64,000 bases of DNA from a virus. The position numbers and the translations under genes were made by a program. Positions 1 to 31,313 of this stretch are shown here, in pieces (the stretch's first letter is position 1; each line of letters opens with the position of its first letter). The stretch lies in IMG/VR virus record IMGVR_UViG_3300007351_000002, one strand, 5' to 3'. The notes below the pieces were generated by a model that searched no databases, was not told the DNA's origin, and saw only the letters and a list, made by a program, of their open reading frames with translations.

Positions 1-127
1 TGAACTGGAAAACGGTATTAATATCTACACACGGATCTCGTTGAAGACCATGCCACGAATTTGCGATTCTGGCAATTCCAGACAGCAATACGAAAAGTTT
101 GACTATAAAGAACATAGAATTTTCCTT

Positions 128-313
128 TCAAAAGCCAGCACGACGTAGAAAGTCGGCACATTCAGAACAAAAATATTCCATTGACTTTTCAGCAAAAGCA
201 AAGTTGGGATATTTGGAGAATTGGAAATCCCCTTTGTATAAAGAACACTGCCAAGGTTCGGAATCGTCGTGGGGGTATTCTATATCATCGTCGTATGGAG
301 GATATGGAAGCAT
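128..313 (-). CDS. hypothetical small protein (61 aa)
   Basis: ORF in the GC-rich island. AAGGAG (rc of 320-325) lies 6 nt upstream of the ATG. Preferred over the overlapping + ORF 99-392, which has a TTG start and no SD. Confidence 0.4.
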   Translation of the reverse strand: MLPYPPYDDDIEYPHDDSEPWQCSLYKGDFQFSKYPNFAFAEKSMEYFCSECADFLRRAGF

Positions 314-388
314 TTTTGACTCCTTATTTTTGAGGTTTATGCGTTATTTTAGTCAACAGTATGCGCATCCCACTGCAAGGAGGATCGA

Positions 389-529
389 CTAATCCTGTTC
401 CGGAATTTCGAGAAGCAATTTGGGAACATAGATTCCCCTGTTGGTGCGGACCCAATCCGGTCCCTCAGAGATGACGCGGAGAACTTCCCCCTTGAGGTAG
501 GGGCCATAATTTTCATGCATGATGTACAT
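389..529 (-). CDS. hypothetical small protein (46 aa, MYIMHENYGPYLKGEVLRV...)
   Basis: Hand-translated ORF, below the track cutoff. AAGGAG (rc of 535-540) lies 5 nt upstream of the ATG. Same strand and operon as 128-313. Confidence 0.4.
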   Translation of the reverse strand: MYIMHENYGPYLKGEVLRVISEGPDWVRTNRGIYVPKLLLEIPEQD

Positions 530-663
530 ATAGTCTCCTTTCAAGAGTTTTATGGGGAGGTTTGCGTGTTTTTGGTCGGTATGCGCAACCCACCGAATGG
601 GGGAATGGGTTTACTCGTATTTGAACATAATTTTCTATAACAAGTTGTGTATAATACTTTCGA

Positions 664-1185
664 ATGAAAGTCAAATGTACAAAGTGCAATAAAGAAGTTG
701 ATAGATATCTGTCTGTAGTGAAGAAGTCCGCGAACCATTTTTGTTCTAGGTCTTGCTCAAATTCGTATCATAATAGCACGAGACCCAAAAGAATTAAATC
801 CGGTATATGTAAATTGTGCCAGTCGCCAATTTTGTCACGTTTTTATTATTGTCAAATATGTAGAGAAAAAAGAAAATTAGAAATAAATAAAACAACAATT
901 AAACAGTATAAAGACAGAACGAAAGATATGAATCGTTATAGGTATATTCGGGAACATGCCAAAAGAAAAACAAAAAATAGGACACAGATTTGTTTTAACT
1001 GTGGTTATACCAAACATGTAGAAGTTTGTCATATTGTGGCCATAGAATCTTTTTCAGATGACACACAAATTATCATAGTAAACGACGACAAAAATTTGGT
1101 TTTGTTATGTAGGAATTGTCATTGGGAACTTGATAATGGATTACTGGGCCTGGAGGGATTCGAACCCCCGACCAAGCGATTATGA
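664..1185 (+). CDS. HNH endonuclease (free-standing, homing-type)
   Basis: N-terminal Cys-rich CxxC pairs and a C-terminal HNH motif (CHIVAIESF...NLVLLCRNCHWELDNG). AT-rich cassette inside the GC-rich island. The last 41 nt run antisense into the tRNA. Confidence 0.75.
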   Translation: MKVKCTKCNKEVDRYLSVVKKSANHFCSRSCSNSYHNSTRPKRIKSGICKLCQSPILSRFYYCQICREKRKLEINKTTIKQYKDRTKDMNRYRYIREHAKRKTKNRTQICFNCGYTKHVEVCHIVAIESFSDDTQIIIVNDDKNLVLLCRNCHWELDNGLLGLEGFEPPTKRL

Positions 1186-1217
1186 GTCGCCTGCTCTAAC
1201 CGCTGAGCTACAAGCCC
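1145..1217 (-). tRNA. tRNA with CAU anticodon (elongator Met, or Ile2 if lysidine-modified)
   Basis: Hand-folded 73-nt cloverleaf: acceptor GGGCTTG/CAGGCCC, D arm GCTC-AGCGGTTA-GAGC, anticodon arm GGCGA-CTCATAA-TCGCT, T arm GGGGG-TTCGAAT-CCCTC, discriminator A. The 1:72 pair is G:C, so it is not an initiator. No encoded CCA. Confidence 0.9.
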
Positions 1218-1223
1218 ATTCTC

Positions 1224-1664
1224 TTAATTTCTGCCATACTTGGATTTGCGGTTTCGATTTTTTGCCCGTTTCGCCTTTTCGTGTGACTTTTCACGTTCTT
1301 GACGAACGACAGGATCGAGTGATGCCAGATGAACTTCTGCTTTGGTAGCCAGTAAACATGGCATTTTTCGTGGACGAGTTGCAGTTGCCCTGGCCTTTTT
1401 CAGACCCGTTCCGTCTAACGTTTTGACGAATTTTGCGTCATCTCGTCGAGGCCTCTTGGTGGAAAATCCGAAATTGCCATCCCCAGCTTTCATTGAAAGA
1501 GGATCGGTCTTTCTTGCTTTTCGCACACCGACGGCGCGAATTGTGTACTCTCCTACAGACAATCCCCTCATGACGGCGAACTTGCGCTCATCCCCCTGAA
1601 GAACATTGAAAGGGCGCAGGCGCATATTCCTACGTTCCTCTTCTGTCAAATACGTTTTGTCCAT
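1224..1664 (-). CDS. hypothetical basic protein (146 aa, Lys/Arg-rich C-terminus)
   Basis: AGGAG (rc of 1671-1675) lies 6 nt upstream of the ATG. Translationally coupled to the upstream 51-aa ORF. The overlapping + ORFs lack an SD. Confidence 0.55.
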   Translation of the reverse strand: MDKTYLTEEERRNMRLRPFNVLQGDERKFAVMRGLSVGEYTIRAVGVRKARKTDPLSMKAGDGNFGFSTKRPRRDDAKFVKTLDGTGLKKARATATRPRKMPCLLATKAEVHLASLDPVVRQEREKSHEKAKRAKNRNRKSKYGRN

Positions 1665-1673
1665 ACCAATCTC

Positions 1674-1829
1674 CTAAATTCTGTGTCTAATAACTTCGTA
1701 GACTTCAGAGTTTTCGAGTTTCTTCGCCCGCTCTTGGGCTTTGTCTTCTTCATCGGATCTGAAAACGGTGTCGAGGGCATATCTACCGTCTTTCATAACT
1801 TCCCACACTTCGATTTCTCTTTCTATCAT
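1674..1829 (-). CDS. hypothetical small protein (51 aa, MIEREIEVWEVMKDGRYALD...)
   Basis: Hand-translated ORF. AAGGAG (rc of 1836-1841) lies 6 nt upstream. Its stop overlaps the SD of the next gene. Confidence 0.45.
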   Translation of the reverse strand: MIEREIEVWEVMKDGRYALDTVFRSDEEDKAQERAKKLENSEVYEVIRHRI

Positions 1830-1846
1830 ATAACTCTCCTTTCAAT

Positions 1847-1948
1847 AACCTATTTCGGGAGTCGAACCCGAACCTTCGCCGCTTATAAAAACAAACTTTC
1901 GTTTGTCTACAGAGGCAAGCGATATGCCCAACTTCACACCTCACAGGT
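1847..1948 (-). ncRNA. tRNA-like element with an expanded anticodon arm (degenerate or insert-containing tRNA, or a tRNA-like ncRNA)
   Basis: Canonical T arm TCGGG-TTCGACT-CCCGA. Acceptor ACCTGTG/AATAGGT pairs at 6 of 7 positions. D arm TGTG-AAGTTGGG-CATA. The 5-bp stem CGCTT/AAGCG encloses 32 nt, including an ACAAAC-GAAA-GTTTGT hairpin, where a 7-nt loop is expected. Confidence 0.3.
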
Positions 1949-3021
1949 TAAGCGCTATTTTAGGGCGCTACTCTAGAACTATGGCACTAACGATCCCTTT
2001 TGCTGGACCGAATAGTGTCAATATCAAGGTTCATTAAAGACAGAGCATCCCGAAAGATAAACATGACTTGAGCATAGCAAGCCGAAACACACAAAGCGAA
2101 TCCATAAAACTATCGGACTCGCAGTGCGAACTCGGACCATATCTATCTTTGCTGTCCCGCGCTACATTTATCGTACCAGCACTTCAAGACCCAATAACCA
2201 CCAGGATTATTGAACCTTGACGCCGCATCCCCAGCCCATAATAACCAATTCCGCTATCGAAGAATAACGACCAAGCTACGACTGATAAGATCGTAGCCGA
2301 CCCGATAAGAACATTCCTCGAATTGTGGCGCAATAGTTTAATTGTGGACTATTGGAGATGGAATATCACTCGCGCGATTTTCGGCCCGACTAGAGACAAA
2401 TAAGGTCGCATAATAACCGTGGAACTACCGACGAATCGGCGTTTAGCCACATTATGCAACCATCATTATGACTCTCAGATTATAAGACTTCCTTACACTC
2501 TTTCCCGATTAGGTTTTTTCTTGATTACATTCTTGACTCCCTATCAAGGCGCTATCCAAGACGTAACCAAGACCGATAATCGGTATTAGCGCACTTCGTC
2601 CCATAATCAAAGACGGTCGATAACCTAACGTACTGATAGGCATGAAGTGGGACTTCAGACCGATAACCTTGACTGACCCTCAGACCCTGAGCGCGATCCC
2701 CGCGCCCAACCAGACCCTACATACGGATCAGGAGCATTATTGGACCTACCCTCTCTTCAGCGGTCAGCCCGATAACTAATCGGACACCCGCTACTCGGAC
2801 GTTGAGCCCTTCCAGACACCGACAGGGACTAGCTTATGGTAGCCCTATAATTCCAGAAGTTATCTGGACTCTCGATGTAAGGCGAGACACGTCCTATAAC
2901 CCAGAGGTTTAGGCATACGTACCTATCCAATATAGGACGCATCTCGGCTGACACCGATAAGGAGATAACGGTTATTCAAGCGATACCGTAAAACGCTATA
3001 AGACTAAGCGCCATGATCGGA

Positions 3022-3336
3022 CTACGCGATCTTCGCAAACTTCGACCGAATACTCGCGGTCGATGCACGCTGTCCGAGAACCGCCAACGCGATGGTAGCC
3101 GCGTTATCGGAACCGAAATCGAGATTCGACGGAGGGGTATAACCCTCGCCGTGCGCGGCCAGCAACTTGAGACTGTCGATGACCTCTTGCGCGTCCAACA
3201 TCGCCTGTTGAGGATTCTTGACCGACAGGATAGCCTCGACGAACTTCCTGTTCGCCTTGTACCGAGGGCCTGTCCGCAAGAACAACTCCTGGACGTTGAC
3301 CGATCCCGACTTCGGCTGGGTGGTGGTGGTGCTCAT
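3022..3336 (-). CDS. hypothetical protein (104 aa)
   Basis: AGGAG (rc of 3343-3347) lies 6 nt upstream of the ATG. GC-rich. Two overlapping + ORFs lack an SD. Confidence 0.55.
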   Translation of the reverse strand: MSTTTTQPKSGSVNVQELFLRTGPRYKANRKFVEAILSVKNPQQAMLDAQEVIDSLKLLAAHGEGYTPPSNLDFGSDNAATIALAVLGQRASTASIRSKFAKIA

Positions 3337-4038
3337 AGGAGACTCCTATAGTAGAACCTACACCATCCCGACCACAGGACCATCCTATAATCAGGATGGC
3401 GCTTGCAAGTCGTTATGTCTGATAACTTCCGCCTTTACGGGTATCGCATTGCACGATAGGATACCTTGAATTGACTATCTAAGTATACTGCGCTTTTCGC
3501 GGGAAGTCAAGCGATTTTTTCGCTTTTTTCTTTTTTTCCCCGCGATACACTGATTCTAGGCGCGTATCAAGGTGAAGTCAACCTATTGACCAAGTTTTTT
3601 TTATTATTGGTATCATCCTATAATATTAGATCTGGTTGTGATTAAAATAAGATATTATTGGCATTGTCCTATAAAAACAAAGTCCTATAGTAATTTTCTT
3701 TTTGGTCCGGTAATAATAAAAAGTGCGCAGGGTTCGCCCGCTCGCAGTGCCTTATCGGAACCTGCCCGCGTCGTCCTACTTTTTTGATTGTCTGATATAT
3801 TCTATGATAGAAAACCAGGATTGTCAAGCCCTATAATAAAAATTTTTTCACGTCCTATAAACTCAATAATTCAACGTCCGATAACCGCAGTGCTGTAGTG
3901 TGTAAAATTATCGGACGTTTTTCAGTCCGATAATTCTTCATGTTATCGGCAGTGCCTGGTCCGATAATGTGTCGCCGGCGCAAAAATTATAGGACGAAGG
4001 CAGCGCTTCCCTCCGTCCCATAATCTTTTTGTTATCGG

Positions 4039-4359
4039 CTATTCCCAGGATTGTCTGATAACCTCAGCCGCTCGAACGTCCGAATTTGGCATTTTTCTTG
4101 CCGCGATTTTATCGGAATCCTGCTCGTCAGCGTCCGAAAACGTGATCCCACCCAACCAACCGTCCGATAAAAGAGTCTCTTTCAATCTCTCTACCGCTCT
4201 TGTATCGGACATTGCCATCGCCGTAGTCCCATAAAACCTATGGTGGAATGGTCCGATAATGGTTGCAACCCACATTTTACCGGACCTGCTCAAGCCATAC
4301 TTCAATGTTGACCGTTTTTTCAATTTGTTCATCATAGCTTGACGGAAAGAAAGGGCCAT
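4039..4359 (-). CDS. hypothetical protein (106 aa)
   Basis: AAGGAGG (rc of 4366-4372) lies 6 nt upstream of the ATG. Contains several copies of the island motif in different frames. Confidence 0.55.
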   Translation of the reverse strand: MALSFRQAMMNKLKKRSTLKYGLSRSGKMWVATIIGPFHHRFYGTTAMAMSDTRAVERLKETLLSDGWLGGITFSDADEQDSDKIAARKMPNSDVRAAEVIRQSWE

Positions 4360-4422
4360 AACTAACCTCCTTATAAGACGTACCCCAGTTTAGTTACCGG
4401 AACGCCCGATAACTTTGTCTCG

Positions 4423-4728
4423 TTACCTTCCGAGAAAGTCCAATAAAACCATCATTTCGTCGAGGTTCGATAACTTGTCATTGTCCCATCGCGTCCGATA
4501 ATCGCCGTCAAGTGTCTCTTCAATTATCATACCATCATGGTAGACTTTGGTTATCGTACCGTCATCGTTATAAGACGCACACACGAACACGTCCGATATA
4601 TTGATTATCGTTGTATGGCCCGATAAGTCACAGAACCCCAACACCTCATTATCGGACACAACCTGCAAGACCCGATAACTGTCTGTACTGCCGAAGAGTC
4701 CCATAACGTCTCCCTCTTTAACCAGCAT
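4423..4728 (-). CDS. hypothetical protein (101 aa)
   Basis: ORF with a purine-rich AAAGGGG stretch about 8 nt upstream. Same operon orientation as 4039-4359. Confidence 0.5.
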   Translation of the reverse strand: MLVKEGDVMGLFGSTDSYRVLQVVSDNEVLGFCDLSGHTTIINISDVFVCASYNDDGTITKVYHDGMIIEETLDGDYRTRWDNDKLSNLDEMMVLLDFLGR

Positions 4729-4740
4729 TGAAGCACCCCT

Positions 4741-4818
4741 TTAGTCCGATAGTATCCACCATAATTGGGCGGCTCCGATAACCACCATGAGGATACTTAG
4801 TCCGATAAGTGCGATCAT
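4741..4818 (-). CDS. possible 25-aa hydrophobic peptide (MIALIGLSILMVVIGAAQLWWILSD)
   Basis: Hand-translated. GGAG lies 8 nt upstream. Three motif copies lie inside it, so the open frame could be incidental. Confidence 0.25.
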   Translation of the reverse strand: MIALIGLSILMVVIGAAQLWWILSD

Positions 4819-4828
4819 CCGATAACTC

Positions 4829-4960
4829 CTATCGTCGGCTTCGTCCGATATGTTTGCGGCCATAGCTATTTCCAGCGACCGATAATGCGTTATTAAACAT
4901 TGCGATTGCGAGCCCGATAATCACCAAAGCACCGATTGTCAAGGTCGTTTCCATTTTCAT
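4829..4960 (-). CDS. small single-pass membrane protein (about 41-43 aa, METTLTIGALVIIGLAIAMF...)
   Basis: Internal ATGs at 4960 and 4954 follow GGGAG (rc of 4964-4968). Hydrophobic helix followed by a basic tail. The track ORF start at 5014 has no SD. Confidence 0.4.
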   Translation of the reverse strand: MKMETTLTIGALVIIGLAIAMFNNALSVAGNSYGRKHIGRSRR

Positions 4961-5455
4961 TATCTCCCATTTGATACCCAAAGTATAGGATAGGTCGGAT
5001 GGAAAAGCAAACAAAAAAGAAAAATATTTTATTAGTCCTATAAGTAATGCCAGGTTGCGTATGTATGGTCTGATAAGTTATGGTCCGATAGCCTTTGGCG
5101 TCAAGCCAAAGAATAGTCCTATAATTAGTTAAAGTGTTAATGTAATGTGTTAGTCCGATAAATGGATATGGTTATAAGATCATTGAAAGTCCGATAAGGG
5201 TATGGCGGTTTTATACCGATAATGTTTTAGTTATAGGACCGTCCGAAAAACGCTGGGGGTTAACGCGCACCAAGACTCTAAAATGCATCCGAAGTTGGAA
5301 TCAAAGAATACTGATCTTGGGCGTCATGCATCGTTCCGCTTTGCGGAACAAACGTATGGGGTGCCGGTATTTTATAAACGAAAAAATGAAGTGCTTGCTG
5401 ATCTATAAAATGTTACCAAAAAAATCTGGTACTTAATGTATATTTAATTAACAAA

Positions 5456-5465
5456 TGGGTATAAT
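5456..5465 (+). promoter_or_regulatory. candidate -10 element TGGGTATAAT
   Basis: TATAAT at 5460-5465, about 50 nt upstream of the strong SD and ATG of 5515. The identical 10-mer recurs at 47135-47144 ahead of the lipoprotein moron. Confidence 0.4.
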
Positions 5466-5514
5466 AGAATAGTCGGATTTGTTTTAAGTAAACAACTTTT
5501 AAAGGAGAAAAATT

Positions 5515-5904
5515 ATGGGTTTTGGTCCAGTAACGTTCGCAACAGCACAAAGCGTAGATGAGGTAGCTCCGGGTTCGCCAGCTTTTAATAGCGTAACACA
5601 ACCGCCCGGTCAAGATGAAAAGTACGTATGCTCCCTTACACTTCCTACGACAGATTCTGACGGTACATCACTAACCGGACTAACAAAGCTTGCCGTATTT
5701 ACTACCGTTAAAGAGGGCGATGTAAATCCATATGAAGGTCTTTCTATGGATCAAATTATAGCTCTAAATAACGAACAAAATGGTGTAATTCTAACCCTTG
5801 ATCTTACGGTGAACACACCGGGATCGGTCGTTGAAGTAGAACTACCAATTGTACTACTTGGTTCAACACAACAGTTTGCTGCTGCTTGTTCGGATGAAGC
5901 ATAA
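5515..5904 (+). CDS. hypothetical protein (129 aa), possible Ig/FN3-like beta-sandwich; moron-like unit
   Basis: Strong SD (AAAGGAG), its own -10 element and a strong terminator. GC is higher than in the neighbouring early genes. The fold assignment is only an impression from the sequence pattern. Confidence 0.6.
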   Translation: MGFGPVTFATAQSVDEVAPGSPAFNSVTQPPGQDEKYVCSLTLPTTDSDGTSLTGLTKLAVFTTVKEGDVNPYEGLSMDQIIALNNEQNGVILTLDLTVNTPGSVVEVELPIVLLGSTQQFAAACSDEA

Positions 5905-6103
5905 TGTATAGTAGAACTTCAATGACAACAGCAACATCTAGACCCAAAAGCGGTTTATTAGGTAAGATTTACAGTCTATTAGTAATTTTTGAAAGGATCG
6001 TGATCTTTCTAGCAAATCTCAGAAAGAAGTTCAGTTGTTACTGTAAATGTGCGTACATTCGCATGTTCATGTAACAATCACCCATAAGAACTTTACTGTC
6101 AAG

Positions 6104-6141
6104 CCCCGCTCCTCGAAAAGAGCGGGGTTTGTCTTTTTTTT
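6104..6141 (+). terminator. rho-independent terminator
   Basis: CCCCGCTC / GAGCGGGG 8-bp GC stem followed by TTTGTCTTTTTTTT. Confidence 0.8.
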
Positions 6142-6183
6142 GAATTTAAAGAACAAATCGGTCAAAATCGCGTATAATATTAT

Positions 6184-6384
6184 ATGAGAATCAAAAAAAT
6201 GAACGCCAACGAATACGACACCCTTAAAGAGATGGTCTTTAAATATGGTCCAGAAGTAGTGATGGGCGTTGTGTTAGATTCTATAGGAATTATTTTACAA
6301 ACAACAGCATATAAAAAGAAATGGAATTCTATTTATAAAGTTATAAGAAAAAGTATAAATAAGATTGTTAAATATGAAATATAA
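6184..6384 (+). CDS. hypothetical early protein (66 aa)
   Basis: ORF. TATAAT at 6173-6178 lies only 5 nt before the ATG and there is no SD, so this is a possible leaderless transcript. Confidence 0.45.
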   Translation: MRIKKMNANEYDTLKEMVFKYGPEVVMGVVLDSIGIILQTTAYKKKWNSIYKVIRKSINKIVKYEI

Positions 6385-6542
6385 AAGATTTATTACATCT
6401 ATTTTATGTTGGATAGGAATTCATGGAGAATCTAGGCTTGTAAGTATATTTAATTTGTCTAATAAAGGGCGTTTTAGATGTTCCATATGTAAAAGGATTT
6501 TTAAGAGAAAATTATATTTAAAATAAAAGGAAGTATAAAATT

Positions 6543-6749
6543 ATGATGTTCAAAATTTATAAAGATCCAAATGGCGGGATGTATTATTTGGGAGAAGAAA
6601 ATGATACAGCTATAGGTCTCGCCGGATTACCAACCGTAAACGATACATTGGTCCAAATAGGTATGGAAATAAAACGCCGCGATATCAAAATCGCAACCAT
6701 TTATTTAGAAGGAGAAATACTCACAAAATTAGAATGGTTGGATAGATAA
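6543..6749 (+). CDS. hypothetical protein (68 aa)
   Basis: ORF with an AAGGAAG SD upstream. Confidence 0.5.
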   Translation: MMFKIYKDPNGGMYYLGEENDTAIGLAGLPTVNDTLVQIGMEIKRRDIKIATIYLEGEILTKLEWLDR

Positions 6750-7015
6750 GTCATATGCTCAAACGCACAATAATACTAGGCTGTCTTGCTTTAGCAACCG
6801 TAGGTTGCGAAATTATATCCCGTTTTCGTTCCGGCTAAGAAAATAAATTAATGACAGACAATAAGAAAAGTTTATTTTTAATATTGTTTATTGTATTAAT
6901 AGGCGTTTTATCTATTTTTGATCAAGCAAAAAGAAGTAGAAAAATAGATGCAGAATTAATTAAATTAGAATTAAACTGTAAAGAATTAGAAAAACTTGTG
7001 AAGGGTTTAAAGTAA

Positions 7016-7417
7016 ATGAAACTTAATTTAGGTCCGTTTAATAGGTGTGTAGATTATCTTCCAACACACATTGGCCAATTTGATTATACAAGAGCGAAAA
7101 AATGTTTTATGGTCAATTATGATTTTACAAATCTACAGGGTATACATTTGATTGAACAGGAACCAAATCCAGATGGCATTATCACATGTCAAATGTTTGC
7201 ATCTGCATCAACAGATATGAAATCAGAAGAAAATCTCAAATCAAAACTAGAACTTAGAATAATAAATCTTATATTGGATGCTCATCGTATCTTAAACAAA
7301 GAGGTAAATTTAGAAAAAATACAAATTCCATTTAGTCAAGATATAGAAATAAAAGAAGATAAAATAGGTGGAGGATTTTATGGTTGGTGCGAATTAGGAA
7401 TACTAATAGATAATTAG
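7016..7417 (+). CDS. hypothetical protein (133 aa)
   Basis: ORF in the co-oriented early block, with a weak GAAGGG SD. Confidence 0.5.
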   Translation: MKLNLGPFNRCVDYLPTHIGQFDYTRAKKCFMVNYDFTNLQGIHLIEQEPNPDGIITCQMFASASTDMKSEENLKSKLELRIINLILDAHRILNKEVNLEKIQIPFSQDIEIKEDKIGGGFYGWCELGILIDN

Positions 7418-7446
7418 CTTGTCTGGAAATTATATTAGGAGTAATA

Positions 7447-7647
7447 ATGATACACTGTTGGGATAATAAACCTCTGCGAGACTTGGAATATATTATAGAC
7501 TTGTTTGAATTTTATTTAACAGAACATTATAGATGTGTATTTTGCCATGAACAAAAATTCGATGGTGGACGGTTGCAACACAAGGAATCTTGCCAAATAA
7601 CTAAAGCTAGAAATATTATTTCGAGTTTAGAGTGCGGGGATGATTAA
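7447..7647 (+). CDS. hypothetical protein (66 aa)
   Basis: ORF with an AGGAG SD. Stop/start overlap (TAATG) with the next gene. Confidence 0.5.
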   Translation: MIHCWDNKPLRDLEYIIDLFEFYLTEHYRCVFCHEQKFDGGRLQHKESCQITKARNIISSLECGDD

Positions 7648-8081
7648 TGTTTAAATTTTTAAAGAAAAAAATTAAACTTGTAAAACAAAGAAATAGATAC
7701 GAATGTTCTGTAGCATGTTTATCTATGATAACCGGATGTGAATATTATAAAATATTAAATGCTATTAAAGAAATCTCTGGAAAAAATTGTGGCGAAGGAG
7801 AATTGGGATTACATGTAGGATATTTACCCCAAATACTAAAAGATAAATTTAATATAAAAAGTGAACAAATAAAATTTGAATCATTTAAAAAAATAAAGCA
7901 TTCATGCATATTATCGTTATGTCCAAGAGAATTGTCTATATACAGTAATTTTCATGGTGTTGTATATGATAGAAATAATAAAGTAATATTAGATCCATTA
8001 ATAGACGAACCTATTAAAGATATAAAAAAGTATATGAAAAATTATAATATAATAAACTGTTTGGAGGTTATTAATGTGTGA
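7647..8081 (+). CDS. putative papain-like cysteine peptidase (C39-like)
   Basis: A 'YECSVACLSMITG' Cys motif near the N-terminus and a later 'FHGVVYD' His motif resemble the C39 peptidase layout. This is pattern recognition only. Confidence 0.35.
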   Translation: MFKFLKKKIKLVKQRNRYECSVACLSMITGCEYYKILNAIKEISGKNCGEGELGLHVGYLPQILKDKFNIKSEQIKFESFKKIKHSCILSLCPRELSIYSNFHGVVYDRNNKVILDPLIDEPIKDIKKYMKNYNIINCLEVINV

Positions 8082-8472
8082 ATGCGGTTGTTCATCTTGC
8101 GGTGAATTCTGGAAACTACCGGGACCAAAGGGAATTTTTTATATAATCCAAAAATATCCCGGATGTAAAGGATGTTCCGCGCCTTGTGGAATTGACATAC
8201 AGAAAATAGGCAAAGAAAATCCCGATTATGATTTTCACAATGAAACTAAAGAACTTAAATTTTATGGAGATAAATATTTCCAATCTGCTGCAATAGGATT
8301 CTTCTCTCGTGATGATCTACATATTAAACTTAAAAAATATCTTACAAACTACTTTAAAACCAAAGATTGTTCAAAAATAGAAGATGAAGAATGTAATCTA
8401 CAACATTTGGATTATATTGACGCCGATATTATAGCAGATGAATTTTCGGACGAGTTTTTCGATGGAAAATAG
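8074..8472 (+). CDS. hypothetical Cys-rich protein (132 aa)
   Basis: ORF with a GGAGG SD. Confidence 0.5.
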   Translation: MCECGCSSCGEFWKLPGPKGIFYIIQKYPGCKGCSAPCGIDIQKIGKENPDYDFHNETKELKFYGDKYFQSAAIGFFSRDDLHIKLKKYLTNYFKTKDCSKIEDEECNLQHLDYIDADIIADEFSDEFFDGK

Positions 8473-8668
8473 AAAGAATATAGAATTGAATAAATTTAAA
8501 ATTGCTGTTAGACAAGCCTTGGCTGATTATATTTCGTCAGAAGGTTGTTCATGTTGTCAAAATATAGATAAACATAATGAGGCACAAGCTAAACTAGCGG
8601 AACTTTTAAATGTACCACCTTATGGCGACGAAAGTGGATACGATTTTGTTAGGTTTAAAACCAGTTAA
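8462..8668 (+). CDS. hypothetical protein (about 68 aa)
   Basis: ORF. The internal ATG at 8462 is chosen to minimise overlap with 8074-8472. Confidence 0.4.
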   Translation: MENRKNIELNKFKIAVRQALADYISSEGCSCCQNIDKHNEAQAKLAELLNVPPYGDESGYDFVRFKTS

Positions 8669-8688
8669 TCTGTCTGGCATGATATATT

Positions 8689-8862
8689 ATGGAAAATGAC
8701 AATTTAAGATTAGATCAAATATTTGACGATAACCATCCACTTTGTGATTTTTATAATCATTGTGATGAATGTCGCAAATATTGGAACCGTATGGTTTATG
8801 AAGAAATGTGGGAACCTTATAAGGGATGGACGGATAAGGCTATTATGGAATTTTTGATATAA
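8689..8862 (+). CDS. hypothetical protein (57 aa, MENDNLRLDQIFDD...)
   Basis: Hand-translated ORF, below the track cutoff. Its stop overlaps the next start (TAATG). Confidence 0.4.
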   Translation: MENDNLRLDQIFDDNHPLCDFYNHCDECRKYWNRMVYEEMWEPYKGWTDKAIMEFLI

Positions 8863-9083
8863 TGATTTGTAAATATTGCAAAGATACTGGAGAAGTAATT
8901 TTACTGAACGGATCTAAACCCTGTCTAGATTGTTACAATAGATATAAAGATATAAAATGCAAGGTTCATCCAGATATTAATTGTGAAATAATATTAACAG
9001 GTGATCACAAAGATAATCAAGATCATACGTATACAAAATTTTATTTTTCATGCGGCAATTATGTTATTAGATATACAAGTTAA
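8862..9083 (+). CDS. hypothetical Cys-rich protein (73 aa)
   Basis: ORF, translationally coupled to the upstream ORF. Confidence 0.45.
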   Translation: MICKYCKDTGEVILLNGSKPCLDCYNRYKDIKCKVHPDINCEIILTGDHKDNQDHTYTKFYFSCGNYVIRYTS

Positions 9084-9249
9084 TTTAGAGTTAAGAGAAG
9101 ATTTTTATAATTTCTTTAGTAATAAAGATTATTTAAAACAGGCTATTATTAAAATATTTGACGATACAATAAAAGAACGTCTTAAACAGGAAATAAATGA
9201 CATGACCATTAAAGCAGGAGATTTTTATGAAAATATTAGTTCCACATAA
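9061..9249 (+). CDS. hypothetical protein (about 62 aa)
   Basis: ORF. The internal ATG at 9061 is chosen to limit overlap. Confidence 0.35.
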   Translation: MLLDIQVNLELREDFYNFFSNKDYLKQAIIKIFDDTIKERLKQEINDMTIKAGDFYENISST

Positions 9250-9646
9250 ACATAATGATATAATGATTCAAGATCTAAAAAGAGGCGAATGCTTTTGGAG
9301 TAACAATAGATTATACATGAAAGTAGAGATTCATGGTGGACCATACGATAATGATAAATGCCGTATTTTAGATTTAGCACAAGGAGTTATTTTTATACTT
9401 AATAATGATGTTTTGGTGACACAAGACAATAATATATGTATAACAGAATTACAATCTGAAGAGAAAATGAATAGAGAAATTTCTATAGAAAATTCTGCAA
9501 GAAAATTGTGCAAAAAACTTAATGAAATAAATGAAAGCGAAGAATACAAATCTGTTTGGGAATACTTATCTGTTCATGGTATAAAATATGATGGTCCGGT
9601 TTATGCAAAAGAATTGAAAAATTTAGAAAGCGTTTTAGGAGAATAA
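9227..9646 (+). CDS. hypothetical protein (139 aa)
   Basis: ORF with an AGGAG SD. Confidence 0.5.
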   Translation: MKILVPHKHNDIMIQDLKRGECFWSNNRLYMKVEIHGGPYDNDKCRILDLAQGVIFILNNDVLVTQDNNICITELQSEEKMNREISIENSARKLCKKLNEINESEEYKSVWEYLSVHGIKYDGPVYAKELKNLESVLGE

Positions 9647-9760
9647 TATGGATTTTATAGGTTTGGTATTTAAAAAGATTCAAATGTTTATTGCTTTTGT
9701 GGCTGCACTTTTAATATATTTCGGATATTTTATAGCAAGCTTCTTTAGGAGAAAATAATA

Positions 9761-10117
9761 ATGAATTGGTATAGAATAACTTTAACAGATGGTTCAACAT
9801 GTTTCTATGAGATTAATCTTGATGTTGACGGTCTTATATCAGAAATGCACGAGAATCATCCGTTGAAAATTGAAAGAACAATTGTTTTGATTCCTCATAA
9901 TCAAAATAACAAACAGGGGTTGATTGCTGTAGAGCCGAAAAAAATCAATCCTATGTTTATGGGCTGCGACGATAAGAAAGAATATATTTGCGCGAACAAA
10001 ATAGTATCGTTCGGCGTAATAGATGTAGATAGTGAAGCTTGGACAAAAATTTATGAAAGCGTTTATCAAGAATCTAATTTGGTTAAACCAAATATGAGAC
10101 TAGTGTTACCAGAATGA
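9761..10117 (+). CDS. hypothetical protein (118 aa)
   Basis: ORF with an AGGAG SD. Confidence 0.5.
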   Translation: MNWYRITLTDGSTCFYEINLDVDGLISEMHENHPLKIERTIVLIPHNQNNKQGLIAVEPKKINPMFMGCDDKKEYICANKIVSFGVIDVDSEAWTKIYESVYQESNLVKPNMRLVLPE

Positions 10118-10195
10118 TAAATGCGGCTTTAACAATTTTATGTGTTATTTGTTTAATAATTTTAATCTTGATAGCTATAATTTATAAGGAATAAG

Positions 10196-10429
10196 ATGGC
10201 TAAACTAAAAGCACCAATTTATAAAGAAGCAAATGTACAATCGTGTAATGATTTGCTGGAAGAATTATTGGCAACTTGTCAAGAATTAGATTTTGTATGC
10301 AGGGCTAATGTTCCAATTTCAAAAAGTGGAATAAGAGTAGGTTATGGTGTTAGTGAATCTAAGAAAGCCATAGTTTGTGATACTGTTGTAAGTATAGTAA
10401 AAGAAATAAAGAAGATTAAAGGATGGTAG
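10196..10429 (+). CDS. hypothetical protein (77 aa)
   Basis: ORF with an AAGGA SD. Confidence 0.45.
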   Translation: MAKLKAPIYKEANVQSCNDLLEELLATCQELDFVCRANVPISKSGIRVGYGVSESKKAIVCDTVVSIVKEIKKIKGW

Positions 10430-10522
10430 ATATTTTAATTAATTTTGTATTGCAGTCGATTATCGTATTATCTTATTTTTTTGGATTGTTTAATTAACTT
10501 TTGTTTTTAAAAGGAAAAGAAA

Positions 10523-10741
10523 ATGGTTAAAGGCGATTCGGTATCGGTCGTTAGTTGTCCAGAATGCGAAATTCTTCAAGGTAAAGTAGGGGTAGTAAAA
10601 GAAGTCAATGAATCCGGCGATAAGGTTCGTATTAGTTTTGGCAAGGGTCGCCCACAAAAGGGTCGCCCAGAATGGTTTGAGATTTCTGGCCTACAACCAT
10701 CTACTCAAAATTCTGTAAGTATGCAGGTTAACGGAAAATAA
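10523..10741 (+). CDS. hypothetical protein (72 aa)
   Basis: ORF with an AAAGGAAAAG SD. Confidence 0.45.
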   Translation: MVKGDSVSVVSCPECEILQGKVGVVKEVNESGDKVRISFGKGRPQKGRPEWFEISGLQPSTQNSVSMQVNGK

Positions 10742-10896
10742 TATGGAAACACAAACTAAATGCGATTTATTGCGTGGAGCATTAGATCAACTCGTAGCCG
10801 CTTCAAAGATTTGTATTGAAAACGGGTTTAATAATCAGTCATTACTTAAAAGATATTGTGATCAAGCTGAAGAGATACTTAAGAAGGTAGAATTAG

Positions 10897-11196
10897 ATGC
10901 AAGATAGAAGTCATCAACCAGAATTTCTTTTTAATTTAACCTACGTGCCAAGAGATAATTTTTGGCTATCATTCAATGATATATTGCATAATATATCTTG
11001 TTTGTCTATGGCGTTAAATAATAAAGAAGATCCGTTGTTTATAAAAAAGATAGTTGAGAATACAAAGTATAGACTGGAAGAAGCACAAAGATTGTATAGT
11101 CAAGGTAGCCAAGCTAGACCAGAAAAGAAGGTTATGGCTCCGTATGATGGTATAAAGGGTATTTCTATGGATGGATTTGTAAAGGATGAAATATGA
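10897..11196 (+). CDS. hypothetical protein (99 aa)
   Basis: ORF with a GAAGG SD. Confidence 0.45.
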   Translation: MQDRSHQPEFLFNLTYVPRDNFWLSFNDILHNISCLSMALNNKEDPLFIKKIVENTKYRLEEAQRLYSQGSQARPEKKVMAPYDGIKGISMDGFVKDEI

Positions 11197-11447
11197 ATTA
11201 TATAACAGATAGTGATAGAATAGAATTTCTTGAAAGACAAAATGCTAAAGCGGTATATACTGGAAAATGTCTATTCAGACAGTCTTCAACTGGTCGTGGC
11301 TGGAGACTTCATGAATCTAGTGGTGGTCCTAGGTCTGAAAAGGTTCACGATACGGTTAGACAAGCTATTGATCATGCTATGAGACTAGAATCACAGAATA
11401 GCAAACAAAGAACAAATGAACATCAAATGGATGGTCATAATGCATAA
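11193..11447 (+). CDS. hypothetical protein (84 aa)
   Basis: ORF. 4-nt overlap with the upstream gene and an AAGGA SD. Confidence 0.45.
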   Translation: MNYITDSDRIEFLERQNAKAVYTGKCLFRQSSTGRGWRLHESSGGPRSEKVHDTVRQAIDHAMRLESQNSKQRTNEHQMDGHNA

Positions 11448-11883
11448 ATTGGAACCATGTCTAAGATGGATAGAATCGTGGCGTAAAGATAAAAGCGATA
11501 GATGTAAAATGCTTTATTGGAAAAGTAGAGCTAGATATGCTGAAACAATTTTAAAAATATGTTTTAGAAATAAAACTAAAAATAGAGCCGAGCATATCAG
11601 GGGTTTAGAATTAAAAATAGAAAATCAAGCACAACAGATAAAAGACATGCAAGACACACTAGAACTTAGAAATATTGAAAGAAAGGCTTTAAATATTTTG
11701 GTTGGTTGCGATGGTCCATGCAATAGACCATACATGGAAGATCCATCTAGTGTAACGTCAGAAGTTATAAGAATGGTAGATTGGCATTATAAACGTTTTA
11801 TGAATTGGTGCAATAGAGGAGGATTTGATGCTTATCAAAAATATAGAGATGAATATAAAGGAACTAGATATGGACCTAAATAG
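11416..11883 (+). CDS. hypothetical protein (155 aa)
   Basis: ORF in the co-oriented block. The start is uncertain. Confidence 0.45.
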   Translation: MNIKWMVIMHKLEPCLRWIESWRKDKSDRCKMLYWKSRARYAETILKICFRNKTKNRAEHIRGLELKIENQAQQIKDMQDTLELRNIERKALNILVGCDGPCNRPYMEDPSSVTSEVIRMVDWHYKRFMNWCNRGGFDAYQKYRDEYKGTRYGPK

Positions 11884-22657: not shown

Positions 22658-23153
22658 ATTAATATTGCCATCATATAGTGTGATCAGAGACAGTAGAGAG
22701 AAGGATGGTTTTGGCTGGATTTTTGAAAAGCAATTGGATACCAAGAAGCCTCCGAGATGTAATGGGACTATAGTTCAAAAATTGGATACGGGCGATTATA
22801 GTGTTGTTGGTTATGAAGATTTAATCTGCATAGAAAGAAAAGACGATTACGGAGAATTGTGGGTTAATTACAGTAATAGGGCTACATTCGAAGAAGAAAT
22901 GGAAAGAATGTCTAATATAAAGTATAGATACATTCTTATTGAATCAATTTTAACAAAAGATCATTTAGATCTATCTCCGTGTCAATTTACCAGAAGTGTT
23001 CCGGGAAAAGCCCTAATCTCATGGTTAGCCTCATTATCTATAAAATATGGAGTACATATAATACCAGTTGGTTCATGCGGTATGGCATATGCTCAACTTT
23101 TGTTTCAAAATATACTCAAGATAGAAAAAGATAGATGGGTATTGCAAAATTAA
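22650..23153 (+). CDS. ERCC4-type (XPF/Mus81-like) nuclease domain protein
   Basis: GDYSVVGYEDLICIERKDDYGEL matches the GDx(n)ERKx3D signature. Confidence 0.6.
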   Translation: MSRLILPSYSVIRDSREKDGFGWIFEKQLDTKKPPRCNGTIVQKLDTGDYSVVGYEDLICIERKDDYGELWVNYSNRATFEEEMERMSNIKYRYILIESILTKDHLDLSPCQFTRSVPGKALISWLASLSIKYGVHIIPVGSCGMAYAQLLFQNILKIEKDRWVLQN

Positions 23154-25249
23154 AAAATAAAGAATCGTCTTTGGCACTTCACGATATTCTTAACACCGAC
23201 GAAGGTTATTATGGTTATTTGTTTCCATACAGGAAAAAGGTGCCAAAAGTAACGAAACATATATTTACTGATCTAAAAATATCAAAGAAAAAAGTTGACC
23301 AATTTATAGTAGATAAAATGCTGGACATAGACTATATAGGGTGGACTGCAAAAGTTGTTCTTGGCTTAGATTTATTTCCAATACAGATAGCGGTTTTGCA
23401 AACTTTATGGAAAACTCCTTTTCCTTTATTTATAGCATCTCGTGGAGGAAGTAAAAGTTTTACGTTAGCCGTCTACGCTGTTTTAAAGGCTCTTTTAGAC
23501 CCCGGTGCTAAGATAGTTATTGTTGGTGCGGGTTTAAGACAGGCTAAATTAGTTTTTGCTTATATAGAAAATATATGGAATTCCGCTCCTGTATTGAGAA
23601 GTATAGTTGGCGGCGGGAAGAATGCTGGACCAAGACAAAATGTTGATTTGTGTTATTTTAAGATTGGTCCATCAATTATACAGGCTCTTCCAATGGGTGA
23701 TGGGTCAAAAATAAGAGGATTTAGAGCAACGTGCATTATTGCAGATGAATTTGCATCAATCCCAGAAGATATTTTTGATGTAGTTGTAAGAGGTTTTACG
23801 GCCACAACAAAAACTCCTGTAGATGAAGCAAGAAGACTTGCTATAGAAAAGAAAATAGAAGAACTTGGTATTCCTAATAATTTAAAAGGTGATTTTGTTA
23901 AAAAACCAAAAGGTAATCAGATTATATATTCTGGAACAGCTTATTATCAATTTAATCACTTTGCTAAAAAATTTGATATGTGGAAAGACATTATATCGAG
24001 CAAGGGAGATATGGATAAAATAGCAGAAATATTTGGTGGTAAAAATAATATTCCAGATAATTTTGATCCAAATGATTATGCATTAATAAGATTACCTAGC
24101 AATTATTTACCAGATGGATTGTTAGATAAAAGGCAATTGGCACATGCAAAAGCTACTTTACCCAAAAATATATATGATATGGAATACAATGCAATATTCA
24201 TAAAGGATTCGGATGGATATTTTCCAAGATCATTAATAGAATCATGCACAATTAAACCTTCTAGTTATATCGTTACACCAGACGGAGAAGTTTCTTTTAC
24301 TCCAATGATGAGGGGTATTAAAGGTAGAAGATATGTAATAGGGATAGATCCCGGTGCAGAAAGGGATAGATTGGCTATAACAATTTTAGAAGGGTGGAAA
24401 AATCATTATAGAGTAGTTTATTGTTGGTCAACTAATAAAGATGAATTTAATAAATGTAAAAAACAAGGATTTACTAAAGAACATGATTATTATGCCTATT
24501 GCTGTGCAAAAATAAGAGTATTAGTCAATTTGTTTAATCCTATTAGGATAGAGATGGATAGTCAAGGTGGGGGCTATCCTATTTCTGAAATGTTAAGAAC
24601 TAAAAAAGGATTAGATGGGGAAAAGGGAGAGTTTCCTATATATGAAGTTGTAGATCCAGAAAATATAAAAGAATTTGATGGCGAATCTGATGGTCCGCAT
24701 ATATTGAGTCTAGTTCAACAATCTAATGAATTTAACGCTTATGCTAATGGCATTCTTCATAAAAGTTTAGAAACACAAAGGCTTTTATTTCCAGCATTCG
24801 ATACTGTTATAATGCAAGCCGCACTTATTGCAGAAAAATCGTTAGATATTAATAGTGATACTTATGAAGAATGTGTCTATAACATAGAAGAACTTAAAAA
24901 TGAATTATGTACAATACAAAGAACCGAAACCACTACAGGCAAAGAAAGATTTGATACTCCTACAAGTGTAACTTCAGCTATAGTAGAAGGCAGATATAAA
25001 AAAGGAAGATTAAGAAAAGATAGATATACGAGTTTATTGTTGGCACACAAATATATATATTCAGTAGATGTTACTCCTGAAAGCGGCATTGATTATAATA
25101 ATGTTGCCGGTAATTTTAAGAAAGTAAAAAATCTCGATCCAAATATGGCACTATATCATGGTCCGGGTATAGCGGGTTTCACTAATGCCGAAGAATGGAT
25201 GCGTTCAACTAAAACAAAGAATGCATTACAAAATGGTGACATAATTTAA
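23135..25249 (+). CDS. terL: terminase large subunit
   Basis: Walker A (ASRGGSKSFT), Walker B (CIIADEFASI) and a C-terminal RNase H-like nuclease region (VIGIDPGAERD). Followed by the portal gene. Confidence 0.85.
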   Translation: MGIAKLKNKESSLALHDILNTDEGYYGYLFPYRKKVPKVTKHIFTDLKISKKKVDQFIVDKMLDIDYIGWTAKVVLGLDLFPIQIAVLQTLWKTPFPLFIASRGGSKSFTLAVYAVLKALLDPGAKIVIVGAGLRQAKLVFAYIENIWNSAPVLRSIVGGGKNAGPRQNVDLCYFKIGPSIIQALPMGDGSKIRGFRATCIIADEFASIPEDIFDVVVRGFTATTKTPVDEARRLAIEKKIEELGIPNNLKGDFVKKPKGNQIIYSGTAYYQFNHFAKKFDMWKDIISSKGDMDKIAEIFGGKNNIPDNFDPNDYALIRLPSNYLPDGLLDKRQLAHAKATLPKNIYDMEYNAIFIKDSDGYFPRSLIESCTIKPSSYIVTPDGEVSFTPMMRGIKGRRYVIGIDPGAERDRLAITILEGWKNHYRVVYCWSTNKDEFNKCKKQGFTKEHDYYAYCCAKIRVLVNLFNPIRIEMDSQGGGYPISEMLRTKKGLDGEKGEFPIYEVVDPENIKEFDGESDGPHILSLVQQSNEFNAYANGILHKSLETQRLLFPAFDTVIMQAALIAEKSLDINSDTYEECVYNIEELKNELCTIQRTETTTGKERFDTPTSVTSAIVEGRYKKGRLRKDRYTSLLLAHKYIYSVDVTPESGIDYNNVAGNFKKVKNLDPNMALYHGPGIAGFTNAEEWMRSTKTKNALQNGDII

Positions 25250-31230: not shown

Positions 31231-31313
31231 TATAAAAAAAGTAAAACATTACGAAAATTTATTCAATTAGTTGCTATAATACCATATAGGAAAAATGTTT
31301 TTTGGAGAAATAC

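Follow-up and report, generated by a model that had tools for sequence, protein, structure and literature searches.

A dense, oriented array of a short DNA word and a probable large structured RNA gene form a cassette widespread among uncultured phages

The stoperators of cluster A mycobacteriophages (the gp71 sites of L5) are short, asymmetric sites that occur in many copies, lie within transcription units, and keep one preferred orientation relative to transcription. In L5, ~20–35 of them, bound by a monomeric repressor, are distributed over the 50-kb genome, mostly in short intergenic gaps. Escherichia coli datA, P1 incA, the pSM19035 omega heptads, and R1 parC also rely on one short site in direct and inverted orientation with spacing constraints, having 5–15 contiguous copies in non-coding DNA beside the gene of the binder. 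As for large phage RNAs, GOLLD and ROOL are non-coding, ~0.6–1.1 kb long, rich in helices, and often located beside tRNA genes; we know of no association of either with a motif array. The locus presented here belongs to a viral DNA stretch of 64,000 nucleotides (IMG/VR record IMGVR_UViG_3300007351_000002), the whole of which is referred to as the window. Like stoperators, the sites of its motif array are short and asymmetric, occur in many copies within predicted transcription units, and keep one preferred orientation relative to transcription, but the array is ~50-fold denser and confined to one cassette, with no genome-wide intergenic dispersal. In comparison with datA and similar systems, its copies are irregularly placed and an order of magnitude more numerous. 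Across the related cassettes, 40–120 sites are found within 2–5 kb of mostly coding DNA, in all frames. To our knowledge, there is no precedent for a single word used in this way, and motif, PHROG, and phage-DNA searches returned none for such an array.

The 9-mer GTCCGATAA occurs 11 times in the window, at the positions listed in a preliminary description of the region, versus 0.30 occurrences expected, and none of 100 shuffles reaches this number. With at most 1 mismatch, 68 copies are found versus 12.1 ± 3.2 expected. Of these, 55 fall within 2110–5250, and the other 13, in the remaining 59 kb, correspond to the chance level, which agrees with the earlier remark that matches elsewhere are sporadic. 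The strand bias of ~3:1 described earlier holds for the whole region (40:15 among copies with at most 1 mismatch) and for the array proper, but not for positions 1900–3021, where motif-like words are oriented 5:5. The density is less even than the one copy per 20–50 bp previously given, with 3.0 copies per 100 bp in 5015–5280, ~2.5 in the ORFs, and 0.9 in 1900–3021. The region between 1900 and 5250 is composed of two elements, the array (3337–5250) and what is most likely a structured RNA gene (~1900–3021, minus strand). The probable RNA gene in the left third, the wide spread of the cassette, and the occurrence of the word, differently arranged, in unrelated phages had all been overlooked. 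The features of the cassette are as follows.

5015–5280, no strand: non-coding head of the array, its densest part, with 8 copies, 7 of them in the main orientation
3337–5250, plus strand: oriented motif array proper, 43 copies with at most 1 mismatch (34 in the main orientation, 9 inverted)
4829–5014, minus strand: first small ORF, 61 aa, hydrophobic, with 86–93% identity to the relative in two aligned segments
4741–4863: ORF of 40 aa, overlapping the 61-aa ORF
4423–4728, minus strand: ORF of 101 aa, 56% identical in the relative
4039–4359, minus strand: 106-aa protein of a conserved family, present in 10 of 12 cassettes compared and in 176 metagenomic clusters
3827–3799, minus strand: predicted sigma-70-type promoter, TTGACA-17-TAGAAT, by consensus match only
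3581–3553, minus strand: predicted sigma-70-type promoter, TTGACT-17-TAGAAT, by consensus match only
3510–3482, minus strand: predicted sigma-70-type promoter, TTGACT-17-TATACT, by consensus match only
3022–3336, minus strand: 104-aa protein, marking the array end in 12 of 12 related viral loci and present in 356 metagenomic clusters
1900–3021, minus strand: large conserved non-coding element, most likely a structured RNA of ~1.1 kb, as judged from covariation and a syntenic covariance-model match
1674–1829: ORF of 51 aa between the RNA and the 146-aa gene
1224–1664, minus strand: 146-aa protein, very basic, immediately downstream of the RNA, its family present in 5 of 12 cassettes compared
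1144–1218, minus strand: tRNA-Met at the cassette's downstream edge

The G+C content is 45–47% in the block 1220–5280 and 26–36% in most of the remaining window. This jump (46% to ~30%) is the only observation in favor of the block being an assembly chimera or a contaminant, a concern raised earlier. An independent 46.7-kb contig is collinear with the window across both block borders at 80–88% identity (~85%), and the same cassette is carried by 12 of 12 related viral contigs, which leaves a negligible chance of an artifact. In all 12 of these loci, which are those found with the 104-aa protein as the query, the array is located directly upstream of the 104-aa gene, followed by ~1 kb of conserved non-coding RNA. 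The word does not change with the clade of the 104-aa protein, all clades having the same one. The orientation bias is 3–5:1 in the 12 cassettes and flips inside the 104-aa gene, which in the relatives forms a G+C peak and carries inverted motif copies; the main orientation always corresponds to the coding strand. Divergent junctions resembling that of the window are found in 9–10 of the 12 cassettes. Downstream of the RNA, tRNA genes are present in 8 of these loci (7 plus L249) but absent from the closest relative. Cassettes from contigs with 39–52% G+C share one consensus, degenerate fifth base included. BLAST of 1200–5400 against 50,697 phage records gave no match. The cassette is widespread among uncultured phages and previously undescribed.

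On the plus strand, the array consensus reads A(C/G)GTCC(G>T>C)ATAA(C/T). Copies in the main orientation are GTCCGATAA on this strand and therefore TTATCGGAC on the coding (minus) strand, pointing the same way as the local genes. In ORFs 4039–4359, 4423–4728, and 4741–5014, copies occur in every reading frame, which supports the view that the motif ignores coding boundaries. In an alignment with the relative, identity amounts to 90% within the motif versus 80% elsewhere, and the relative keeps 48 of the 55 sites; judging by this comparison, the sites are under purifying selection at the nucleic-acid level, as had been supposed.

Spacing was evaluated for 859 sites. No neighbors are <13 bp apart, center-to-center distances peak at 15–18, 23–27, and 33–36 bp (near 17, 25, and 34) with troughs between the peaks, and a codon (mod 3) effect is absent. 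The back-to-back pair TTATNGGAC-N1-2-GTCCNATAA is favored. Exclusion distance, quantized spacing, and this preferred pair point to protein binding on DNA, and the motif is most likely a protein-binding site. In unrelated phages, the same word forms tandem arrays with periods of 14, 15, 28, and 29 bp, as well as convergent intergenic clusters, and such varied arrangements are the behavior expected of protein sites. The idea that the copies are decoy −10 hexamers finds no support, and conservation within the word reaches well past GATAAT.

The second element, 1900–3021 on the minus strand, is most likely a structured RNA gene of ~1.1 kb, as suggested by 76 compensatory pairs across 6 sequences, by 54 such pairs in a separate comparison within the window's own clade, and by a syntenic match of a covariance model with 184 positions to 2631–2793 on the minus strand (E = 0.096). 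Motif-like words in this part are paired halves of helices in the conserved structured RNA. The inverted pairs listed in the preliminary description do exist, and the one at 3908–3933 also scores as a hairpin, but CGTCCTATA-N32-TATAGGACG at 2890–2939 is one helix of the RNA. An ORF with recoded stop codons in 1850–3021 was considered and rejected, as none appears under recoding. In Rfam, only tRNA reaches the gathering score in the window and 9 related loci, and nothing is reported at E ≤ 1 in 1100–5500. The RNA differs from GOLLD and ROOL in sequence and helices and matches no Rfam covariance model.

The RNA contains conserved GUCCGAUA(A/G) and UUAUCGG words, which bears on a quite unlikely reading in which the array acts in RNA. 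A long early transcript with ~35–90 UUAUCGGAC elements would then be a sponge or scaffold. It would pair with the inverted copies or with complementary GUCCGAUA words in the large RNA, or would be bound by a protein with affinity for RNA, for which the dsRBD-like 106-aa product would be an example. It would fit the main orientation always lying on the coding strand, the hairpins formed by some inverted pairs, and the predicted alpha-beta-beta-beta-alpha fold of the 106-aa protein, which resembles dsRBD, HicB, and uL18; these matches, however, are weak (TM ~0.4). In the large RNA, however, these words are base-paired to one another rather than free, the densest part of the array lies upstream of the first predicted promoter, and the convergent intergenic clusters and short-period tandem arrays of other phages do not fit. 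In addition, C is the commonest fifth base in the coding-strand reading, followed by A and then G, whereas U, the wobble-compatible base, is the rarest. This order is wrong for pairing with a fixed G and counts against an RNA-pairing role.

A replication, packaging, or DNA-entry signal (origin initiator boxes, terminase sites, or a T5-like injection pause) appears improbable. The cumulative G+C skew has its minimum at ~5000, at the array head, in line with an origin; this is, however, also the strand switch between the cassette on the minus strand and plus-strand genes from 5515. The DnaA box is a 9-mer with a TTAT-N start and a degenerate fifth position, as is the word (TTATNCACA versus TTATNGGAC), but the two share TTATN alone, the specific half of the word being GGAC rather than CACA. 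Iteron origins have regular direct repeats of 17–22 bp that adjoin A+T-rich unwinding DNA and the gene of the initiator, whereas the array has sites of 10–11 bp with irregular though quantized spacing and no initiator gene. Short convergent clusters in two other phages (L043 and L118) do adjoin A+T-rich TTTGAA repeats, like box clusters beside an unwinding element, and T7-like contigs carry 2–6 copies in short loci that also contain the terminase gene; in L042, the one case measured, the copies are ~4 kb downstream of that gene. Nevertheless, 50–120 copies over coding DNA resemble no origin or pac site, and neither an initiator nor a terminase gene adjoins the array. As for DNA entry, the first-step-transfer region of T5 likewise combines small early genes, strong host-type promoters, and ~1 kb of repeat-rich non-coding DNA. 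It shares no sequence or proteins with the cassette, however, and contains other repeats, only in its non-coding part, without a copy of the word, and the T5 analogy proposed earlier is not supported; unlike in T5, the non-coding part here is most likely a structured RNA, with covariation. Related cassettes also sit at very different positions within their contigs, and a link to the termini therefore cannot be drawn.

We tentatively favor a different explanation, in which the array is a very dense, stoperator-like set of putative binding sites controlling the cassette. A single sequence-specific DNA-binding protein would recognize these oriented sites, about one monomer per 10–11-bp site, which would overlie the promoter region and coding DNA of an early-type cassette driven by host RNA polymerase. 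When present, the protein would coat 2–5 kb of DNA, ahead of the first promoter as well as within the transcription unit. Such a coat might act as the switch of the cassette, in that transcription passing from the small genes to the 104-aa gene, the large RNA, and the tRNAs would be blocked or modulated in some other way. The asymmetric stoperators of cluster A mycobacteriophages act in this manner. Among the four ideas put forward earlier, a binding-site array for a small protein encoded in the island fits best. The stoperator-like reading is supported by the enrichment and confinement of the sites, their constant company with the same cassette layout, and one consensus everywhere. Copies are also found upstream of the first promoter in L060 and L051, reaching into apparently untranscribed DNA, and the motif variant TTATAGGGC adjoins the −35 hexamer of the 3827–3799 promoter match; in L060, two of the TTGACT-17-TATAAT matches have the motif next to the −35 hexamer. 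Counted against it is that 50–120 sites far exceed the need of any known operator system.

The candidate binder encoded in the cassette is the 104-aa protein, being the sole gene common to every cassette compared and having a most conserved stretch that is helix-turn-helix-like by sequence pattern alone; the alternative is a conserved host protein. The 104-aa protein is predicted to be all-alpha with five helices (pLDDT 88.8). It has no match in Pfam (HTH families included), PHROGs, PDB, or BFVD, and no structural neighbor by Foldseek, which also counts against the operator explanation. No cassette protein has an HTH match, and no family could be assigned to the 101-aa product. Overall, Pfam, PHROGs, PDB sequence, and Foldseek (PDB, BFVD) searches yield for the cassette proteins only the weak topology of the 106-aa one. 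The multi-HTH 420-aa protein of the window showed no relatives in a co-occurrence test with the word. Phages having the word in other arrangements contain no 104-aa relative within ~7 kb, and there the binder differs, or is encoded elsewhere, or is a host protein.

The preliminary description had found no known signal behind the word. For CRISPR arrays, as for the DnaA box, this is correct, since CRISPR repeats are identical, 24–48 bp long, and regularly placed between unique spacers, versus a 9–11-bp word spaced by a variable 15–50 bp inside conserved genes. The similarity to Xer-type sites, however, was missed. The XerC-side dif arms are ACGTCCGATAAT in Anaeromyxobacter, AGGTCCGATAAC in Myxococcus, GTCCCATAA in Geobacter and Desulfovibrio, and GTCCTATAA in Syntrophus (PMC2731167), and the array consensus A(C/G)GTCC(G/T/C)ATAA(Y) equals this deltaproteobacterial arm, with the same bases tolerated at position 5. 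This table was the sole useful match in a literature search for the 9-mer, almost all others being primers. In a Poribacteria MAG (locus L178), a perfect GTCCGATAA-CTATCC-TTATCGGAC and two further copies immediately precede the gene of a 301-aa Phage_integrase/SAM_1 recombinase. This is the only informative locus in a bacterial genome scan for motif pairs. The scan gave no host signal, its other matches being chance pairs, coding 9-bp tandem repeats (e.g., SDKSDK, MSDK), and, in L171, a REP-like repeat next to a transposase of the IS200-like type.

These matches suggest an unlikely alternative, in which the array acts as a decoy, or sponge, for a tyrosine recombinase of the Xer type encoded by the host. 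The word would be the recombinase arm, and tens to >100 non-recombinogenic half-sites would capture the host enzyme, or a related recombinase of a competing mobile element, early in infection. A host factor would account for one word common to unrelated phage types, and inward arms with a 3–8 bp spacer are absent among ~1,200 phage sites, as expected from a decoy that avoids recombination-competent pairs. The depletion, however, covers all close spacings, the recombinogenic one included, and the favored back-to-back pair reverses the geometry of Xer sites. While dif is a single site with two inverted 11-bp arms around a 6–8-bp spacer, the arrays have many copies without XerD arm or arm-spacer-arm geometry, and no convincing full dif site was found inside them. 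Moreover, XerC binds isolated half-sites poorly, a sponge has no need of orientation bias, a phage with 30% G+C is an odd fit for these lineages, and the benefit for a lytic phage is not evident. No integrase genes were found beside the short clusters in L043 and L118. As the XerC arm of one species or another is fairly likely to match any 9-mer with ATAA at its end, arm identity is a lead rather than a test.

The word is conserved over hundreds of uncultured phage lineages with very different base composition. A rather doubtful broader possibility is that the cassette represents a hitherto undescribed type of phage device, self-contained and horizontally mobile, in which up to ~120 recombinase-arm-like half-sites and a new giant structured RNA partly made of the same word jointly capture or re-target a conserved host DNA enzyme (e.g., an Xer-type recombinase) in the first minutes of infection. 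If true, this would be a host-takeover or anti-defense mechanism based on nucleic acid, not on protein. The ~1-kb RNA, with abundant covariation and without an Rfam family, is a candidate for a new class of giant phage RNA, and its defined genetic context (promoters, partner proteins, and tRNAs) makes it experimentally approachable. As for the array, a word imposed on coding DNA implies strong selection at the DNA level that overrides protein coding, and some factor, of phage or host, must read it. The identity of this factor would probably reveal a new mechanism of early-infection control or host takeover in a large group of environmental phages.

The window holds 11 exact copies of the word GTCCGATAA, all within 3876-5197, compared with 0.30 expected and a maximum of 3 among 100 dinucleotide-preserving shuffles, which bears out the enrichment claimed in the preliminary description. 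With at most one mismatch, 68 copies are found against 12.1 ± 3.2 expected; 55 of them fall in 2110-5250, and the other 13 correspond to chance level. The full consensus is some 11 bases long: A(C/G)GTCC(G>T>C, almost never A)ATAA(C/T). The surrounding block (1220-5280) has a G+C content of 45-47%, while most of the remaining window has 26-36%. The window as a whole belongs to a tailed phage (large terminase at 23135-25249, tape measure at 52408-57168). The motif-saturated stretch originally described as a single unit (2005-5250) comprises two different elements, separated by a gene:

3337-5250: oriented motif array, 34 copies in one orientation and 9 inverted
3022-3336, minus strand: gene of a 104-aa protein
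4039-4359, minus strand: gene of a 106-aa protein, inside the array
about 1900-3021, minus strand: conserved non-coding element, candidate RNA, based on DNA conservation and compensatory changes

Only the first is an array; word-like copies in about 1900-3021 (0.9 per 100 bp, orientation 5:5) are sides of RNA hairpins. In the array's main orientation the gene-carrying strand bears TTATCGGAC; per 100 bp, the non-coding head (5015-5280) has 3.0 copies and the ORFs about 2.5. Within the ORFs, the coding-strand copies fall in each of the three frames (as Leu-Ser-Asp, Ile-Gly-Pro/x, or Tyr-Arg-Thr), and the motif indeed ignores coding boundaries.

The close relative L120/L243, an independent 46.7-kb JGI contig, is collinear with window positions 120-11819 and spans both block borders at a block identity of 80-88%, which dispels the worry about an assembly chimera or contaminant; an artefact, whose probability is negligible, is refuted. 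Aligned globally, the two sequences agree at 90% of motif positions versus 80% of the other positions of 2000-5260, and 48 of the 55 sites stay within one mismatch of the word, several substitutions going towards the consensus. The array is real and under selection.

Scanning viral contigs for pairs of exact copies spaced 10-40 bp gave >119 loci, several with 40-80 copies, and the densest share the 104-aa and 106-aa ORFs with the window. A search of viral contigs with the 104-aa family alignment yielded 12 loci (contigs of 40-181 kb, locus G+C 39-52%). The array, which the preliminary description had proposed to seek in related phages, is present in all 12, as 2-5 kb immediately upstream of the 104-aa gene and with a 3-5:1 orientation bias favouring the coding strand. 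The 104-aa gene itself bears inverted copies and a local G+C peak (53-59%) in every locus, tRNA genes lie 1-6.5 kb downstream in 8 of 12, and a divergent strand switch marks the array start in 9-10. Since several further small protein families, membrane-type among them, recur within the arrays, the ORFs there are real genes. In a metagenomic protein collection the 104-aa and 106-aa families have 356 and 176 clusters, respectively, all unannotated. The array forms part of a phage cassette that is both widespread and undescribed.

Some 870-1100 nt that follow the 104-aa gene show conservation as DNA, with identity of 77-88% among the window, L243, and L121, and 69-80% among six further relatives (L246, L247, L250, L251, L253, and L254). 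The element was located as follows:

L246 8375-9275; L247 8326-9226; L243 8316-9440; L121 747-1783

No long ORF was found in it under TAG, TGA, or TAA recoding, and DNA this conserved without any ORF matches the expectation for an RNA gene. RNAalifold predicts 209 pairs for six sequences, 76 with double compensatory changes, and 334 pairs for the three sequences of the window's own clade, 54 of them compensatory. A 184-position covariance model built from the six sequences has full-length, syntenic matches on the correct strand in L121 (E=0.0023), L249, L243, the window (2631-2793, minus strand, E=0.096), and L252, which are individually weak and consistent in position and strand. The inverted pair previously noticed at 2890-2939, and the one at 2767-2785, are accounted for by hairpins of this element. 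Rfam 15 contains no matching family. The element resembles GOLLD and ROOL, large phage-associated RNAs, in its length and in being carried by phages beside tRNAs (PMC12286853), but matches neither by model test. A candidate for a new giant RNA of phages, it always follows the 104-aa gene and often precedes tRNAs.

Several further features lie near the element. At 1839-1880 (minus strand) there is a T-arm-like sequence, TCGGG TTCGACT CCCGA, 92% conserved in the close relative; ARAGORN calls no tRNA there, and the sequence may be either what is left of a tRNA or a tRNA-like terminus of the large RNA. Directly after the RNA lies the gene of a very basic 146-aa protein (1224-1664, minus strand), a candidate RNA-binding partner; of the 12 cassettes compared, 5 have a member of its family, which shares a conserved RK(M/R)P(C/S)RL stretch. 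An HNH endonuclease ORF (664-1185, plus strand) overlaps a tRNA-Met gene (1144-1218, minus strand); the close relative has about 330 bp without a tRNA in place of the window's about 880 bp, and 664-1218 looks like an inserted homing endonuclease plus tRNA.

Site spacing was analyzed for 859 sites pooled from 11 cassettes. Same-orientation neighbours are almost never <13 bp apart centre to centre, their distances peak at 15-18, 23-27 (mode 25), and 33-36 bp and dip clearly at 19-21 and 29-32, and no period-3 signal is seen. Close spacings are excluded in every orientation but back-to-back TTATNGGAC-N1-2-GTCCNATAA (13 in cassettes, 10 in other phages). Exclusion, peaks, and the favoured pair together point to a footprint in which one dimer arrangement is preferred. 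Action of the word at the RNA level appears quite unlikely: the variable fifth base on the coding strand follows the order C > A > G, with U rarest, which is wrong for pairing with a fixed G of an RNA partner. Judged from these patterns, binding of a protein to the DNA is the better-supported reading.

The same word in other arrangements in unrelated phages also supports such binding. Regular tandem arrays have periods of 14, 15, 28, or 29 bp, T7-like contigs carry 2-6 copies, and two 500-bp intergenic regions hold about 7 TTATCGGAC followed by about 7 GTCCGATAA, converging on the centre:

tandem arrays: L096 1-560; L085 780-900; L083 3487-3640; L036 8277-8450
convergent clusters: L043 5040-5500; L118 3840-4290

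The convergent clusters are adjoined by A+T-rich TTTGAA repeats, have BCS1-like AAA ATPase and DUF7178 genes nearby, and contain near the centre ACATAA-N6-TTAT(C/A)GGAC, possibly a full recombinase-type site. A REP-like repeated unit, GGGGTCAGTCCGATAATTTGACAAT, flanks an IS200-like (Y1_Tnp) transposase gene in a Kiritimatiellota MAG (L171, 5100-7300) and has the word in it by happenstance.

The main rival, although unlikely, is a decoy made of recombinase-arm sites for a host Xer-type enzyme. The word equals the XerC-side dif arm of Anaeromyxobacter, Myxococcus, Geobacter, Desulfovibrio, and Syntrophus (PMC2731167), including flanks and fifth-base variants. In a Poribacteria MAG (L178), a perfect palindrome, GTCCGATAA-CTATCC-TTATCGGAC, immediately precedes the gene of a 301-aa Xer-like tyrosine recombinase:

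L178 4638-4760: this site and two more word copies
L178 4773-5678: recombinase gene

Phage arrays have 0 inward pairs at 3-8 bp, and such absence of recombination geometry is compatible both with a decoy that has to avoid recombination and with a binder that has nothing to do with Xer. The decoy ranks below the best explanation because some XerC arm can by chance match a word that ends in ATAA, the preferred back-to-back pair is the opposite of Xer geometry, and the arms compared come from the named bacteria, which may or may not be the phage hosts.

As for the binder, the 104-aa gene is the only one present in every cassette. Its AlphaFold model is confident (five helices, pLDDT 88.8), with no structural neighbour in PDB or BFVD and no Pfam match, and the invariant C-terminal stretch GFGS(D/E)NAxxIAxx(L/I)GxRxS/TxxxxRxxF looks, by its pattern, like a helix-turn-helix. 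For the 106-aa protein an alpha-beta-beta-beta-alpha fold is predicted, which weakly matches dsRBD, HicB, and uL18. The suggested co-variation of the word with a small ORF was not seen for 104-aa clades and is uninformative there, as all use the same word. No relatives of either protein were found in the searched locus DNA of phages with other arrangements. Elsewhere in the window, the structural genes have among them one for a 420-aa protein (31302-32564, plus strand) composed of several tandem HTH domains (HTH_23, HTH_28, HTH_7, IS630-type, psq). A local rise in G+C at 30-31 kb lies just upstream of this gene, and viral contigs yielded no relatives of the protein.

Near-consensus sigma-70-type promoter matches lie on the coding strand at 3827, 3581, and 3510 in the window, and TTGACT-17-TATAAT occurs twice in L060, another cassette; three of these matches, across the two, have a motif variant directly next to the -35 hexamer. 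Sites are densest in the non-coding head, which in the window, L060, and L051 precedes the first predicted promoter; this, too, agrees with binding to DNA. A conserved palindrome, CTTGCATGACATGCAAG, lies amid motif copies in the array heads of L060 (~455-475) and L051 (~3800-3820), upstream of the first promoter, and may be a second operator.

An origin, packaging, or entry signal is very unlikely, and the probability left beyond the listed readings goes to none of these. The best explanation, tentatively held, sees in the array a very dense and oriented set of operators or stoperator-like sites, which would control an early cassette with the giant RNA at its end. Arrays of protein sites are already known as a kind; what is new here is how dense the sites are, their overlay on coding DNA, their conservation, and the RNA linked to them.
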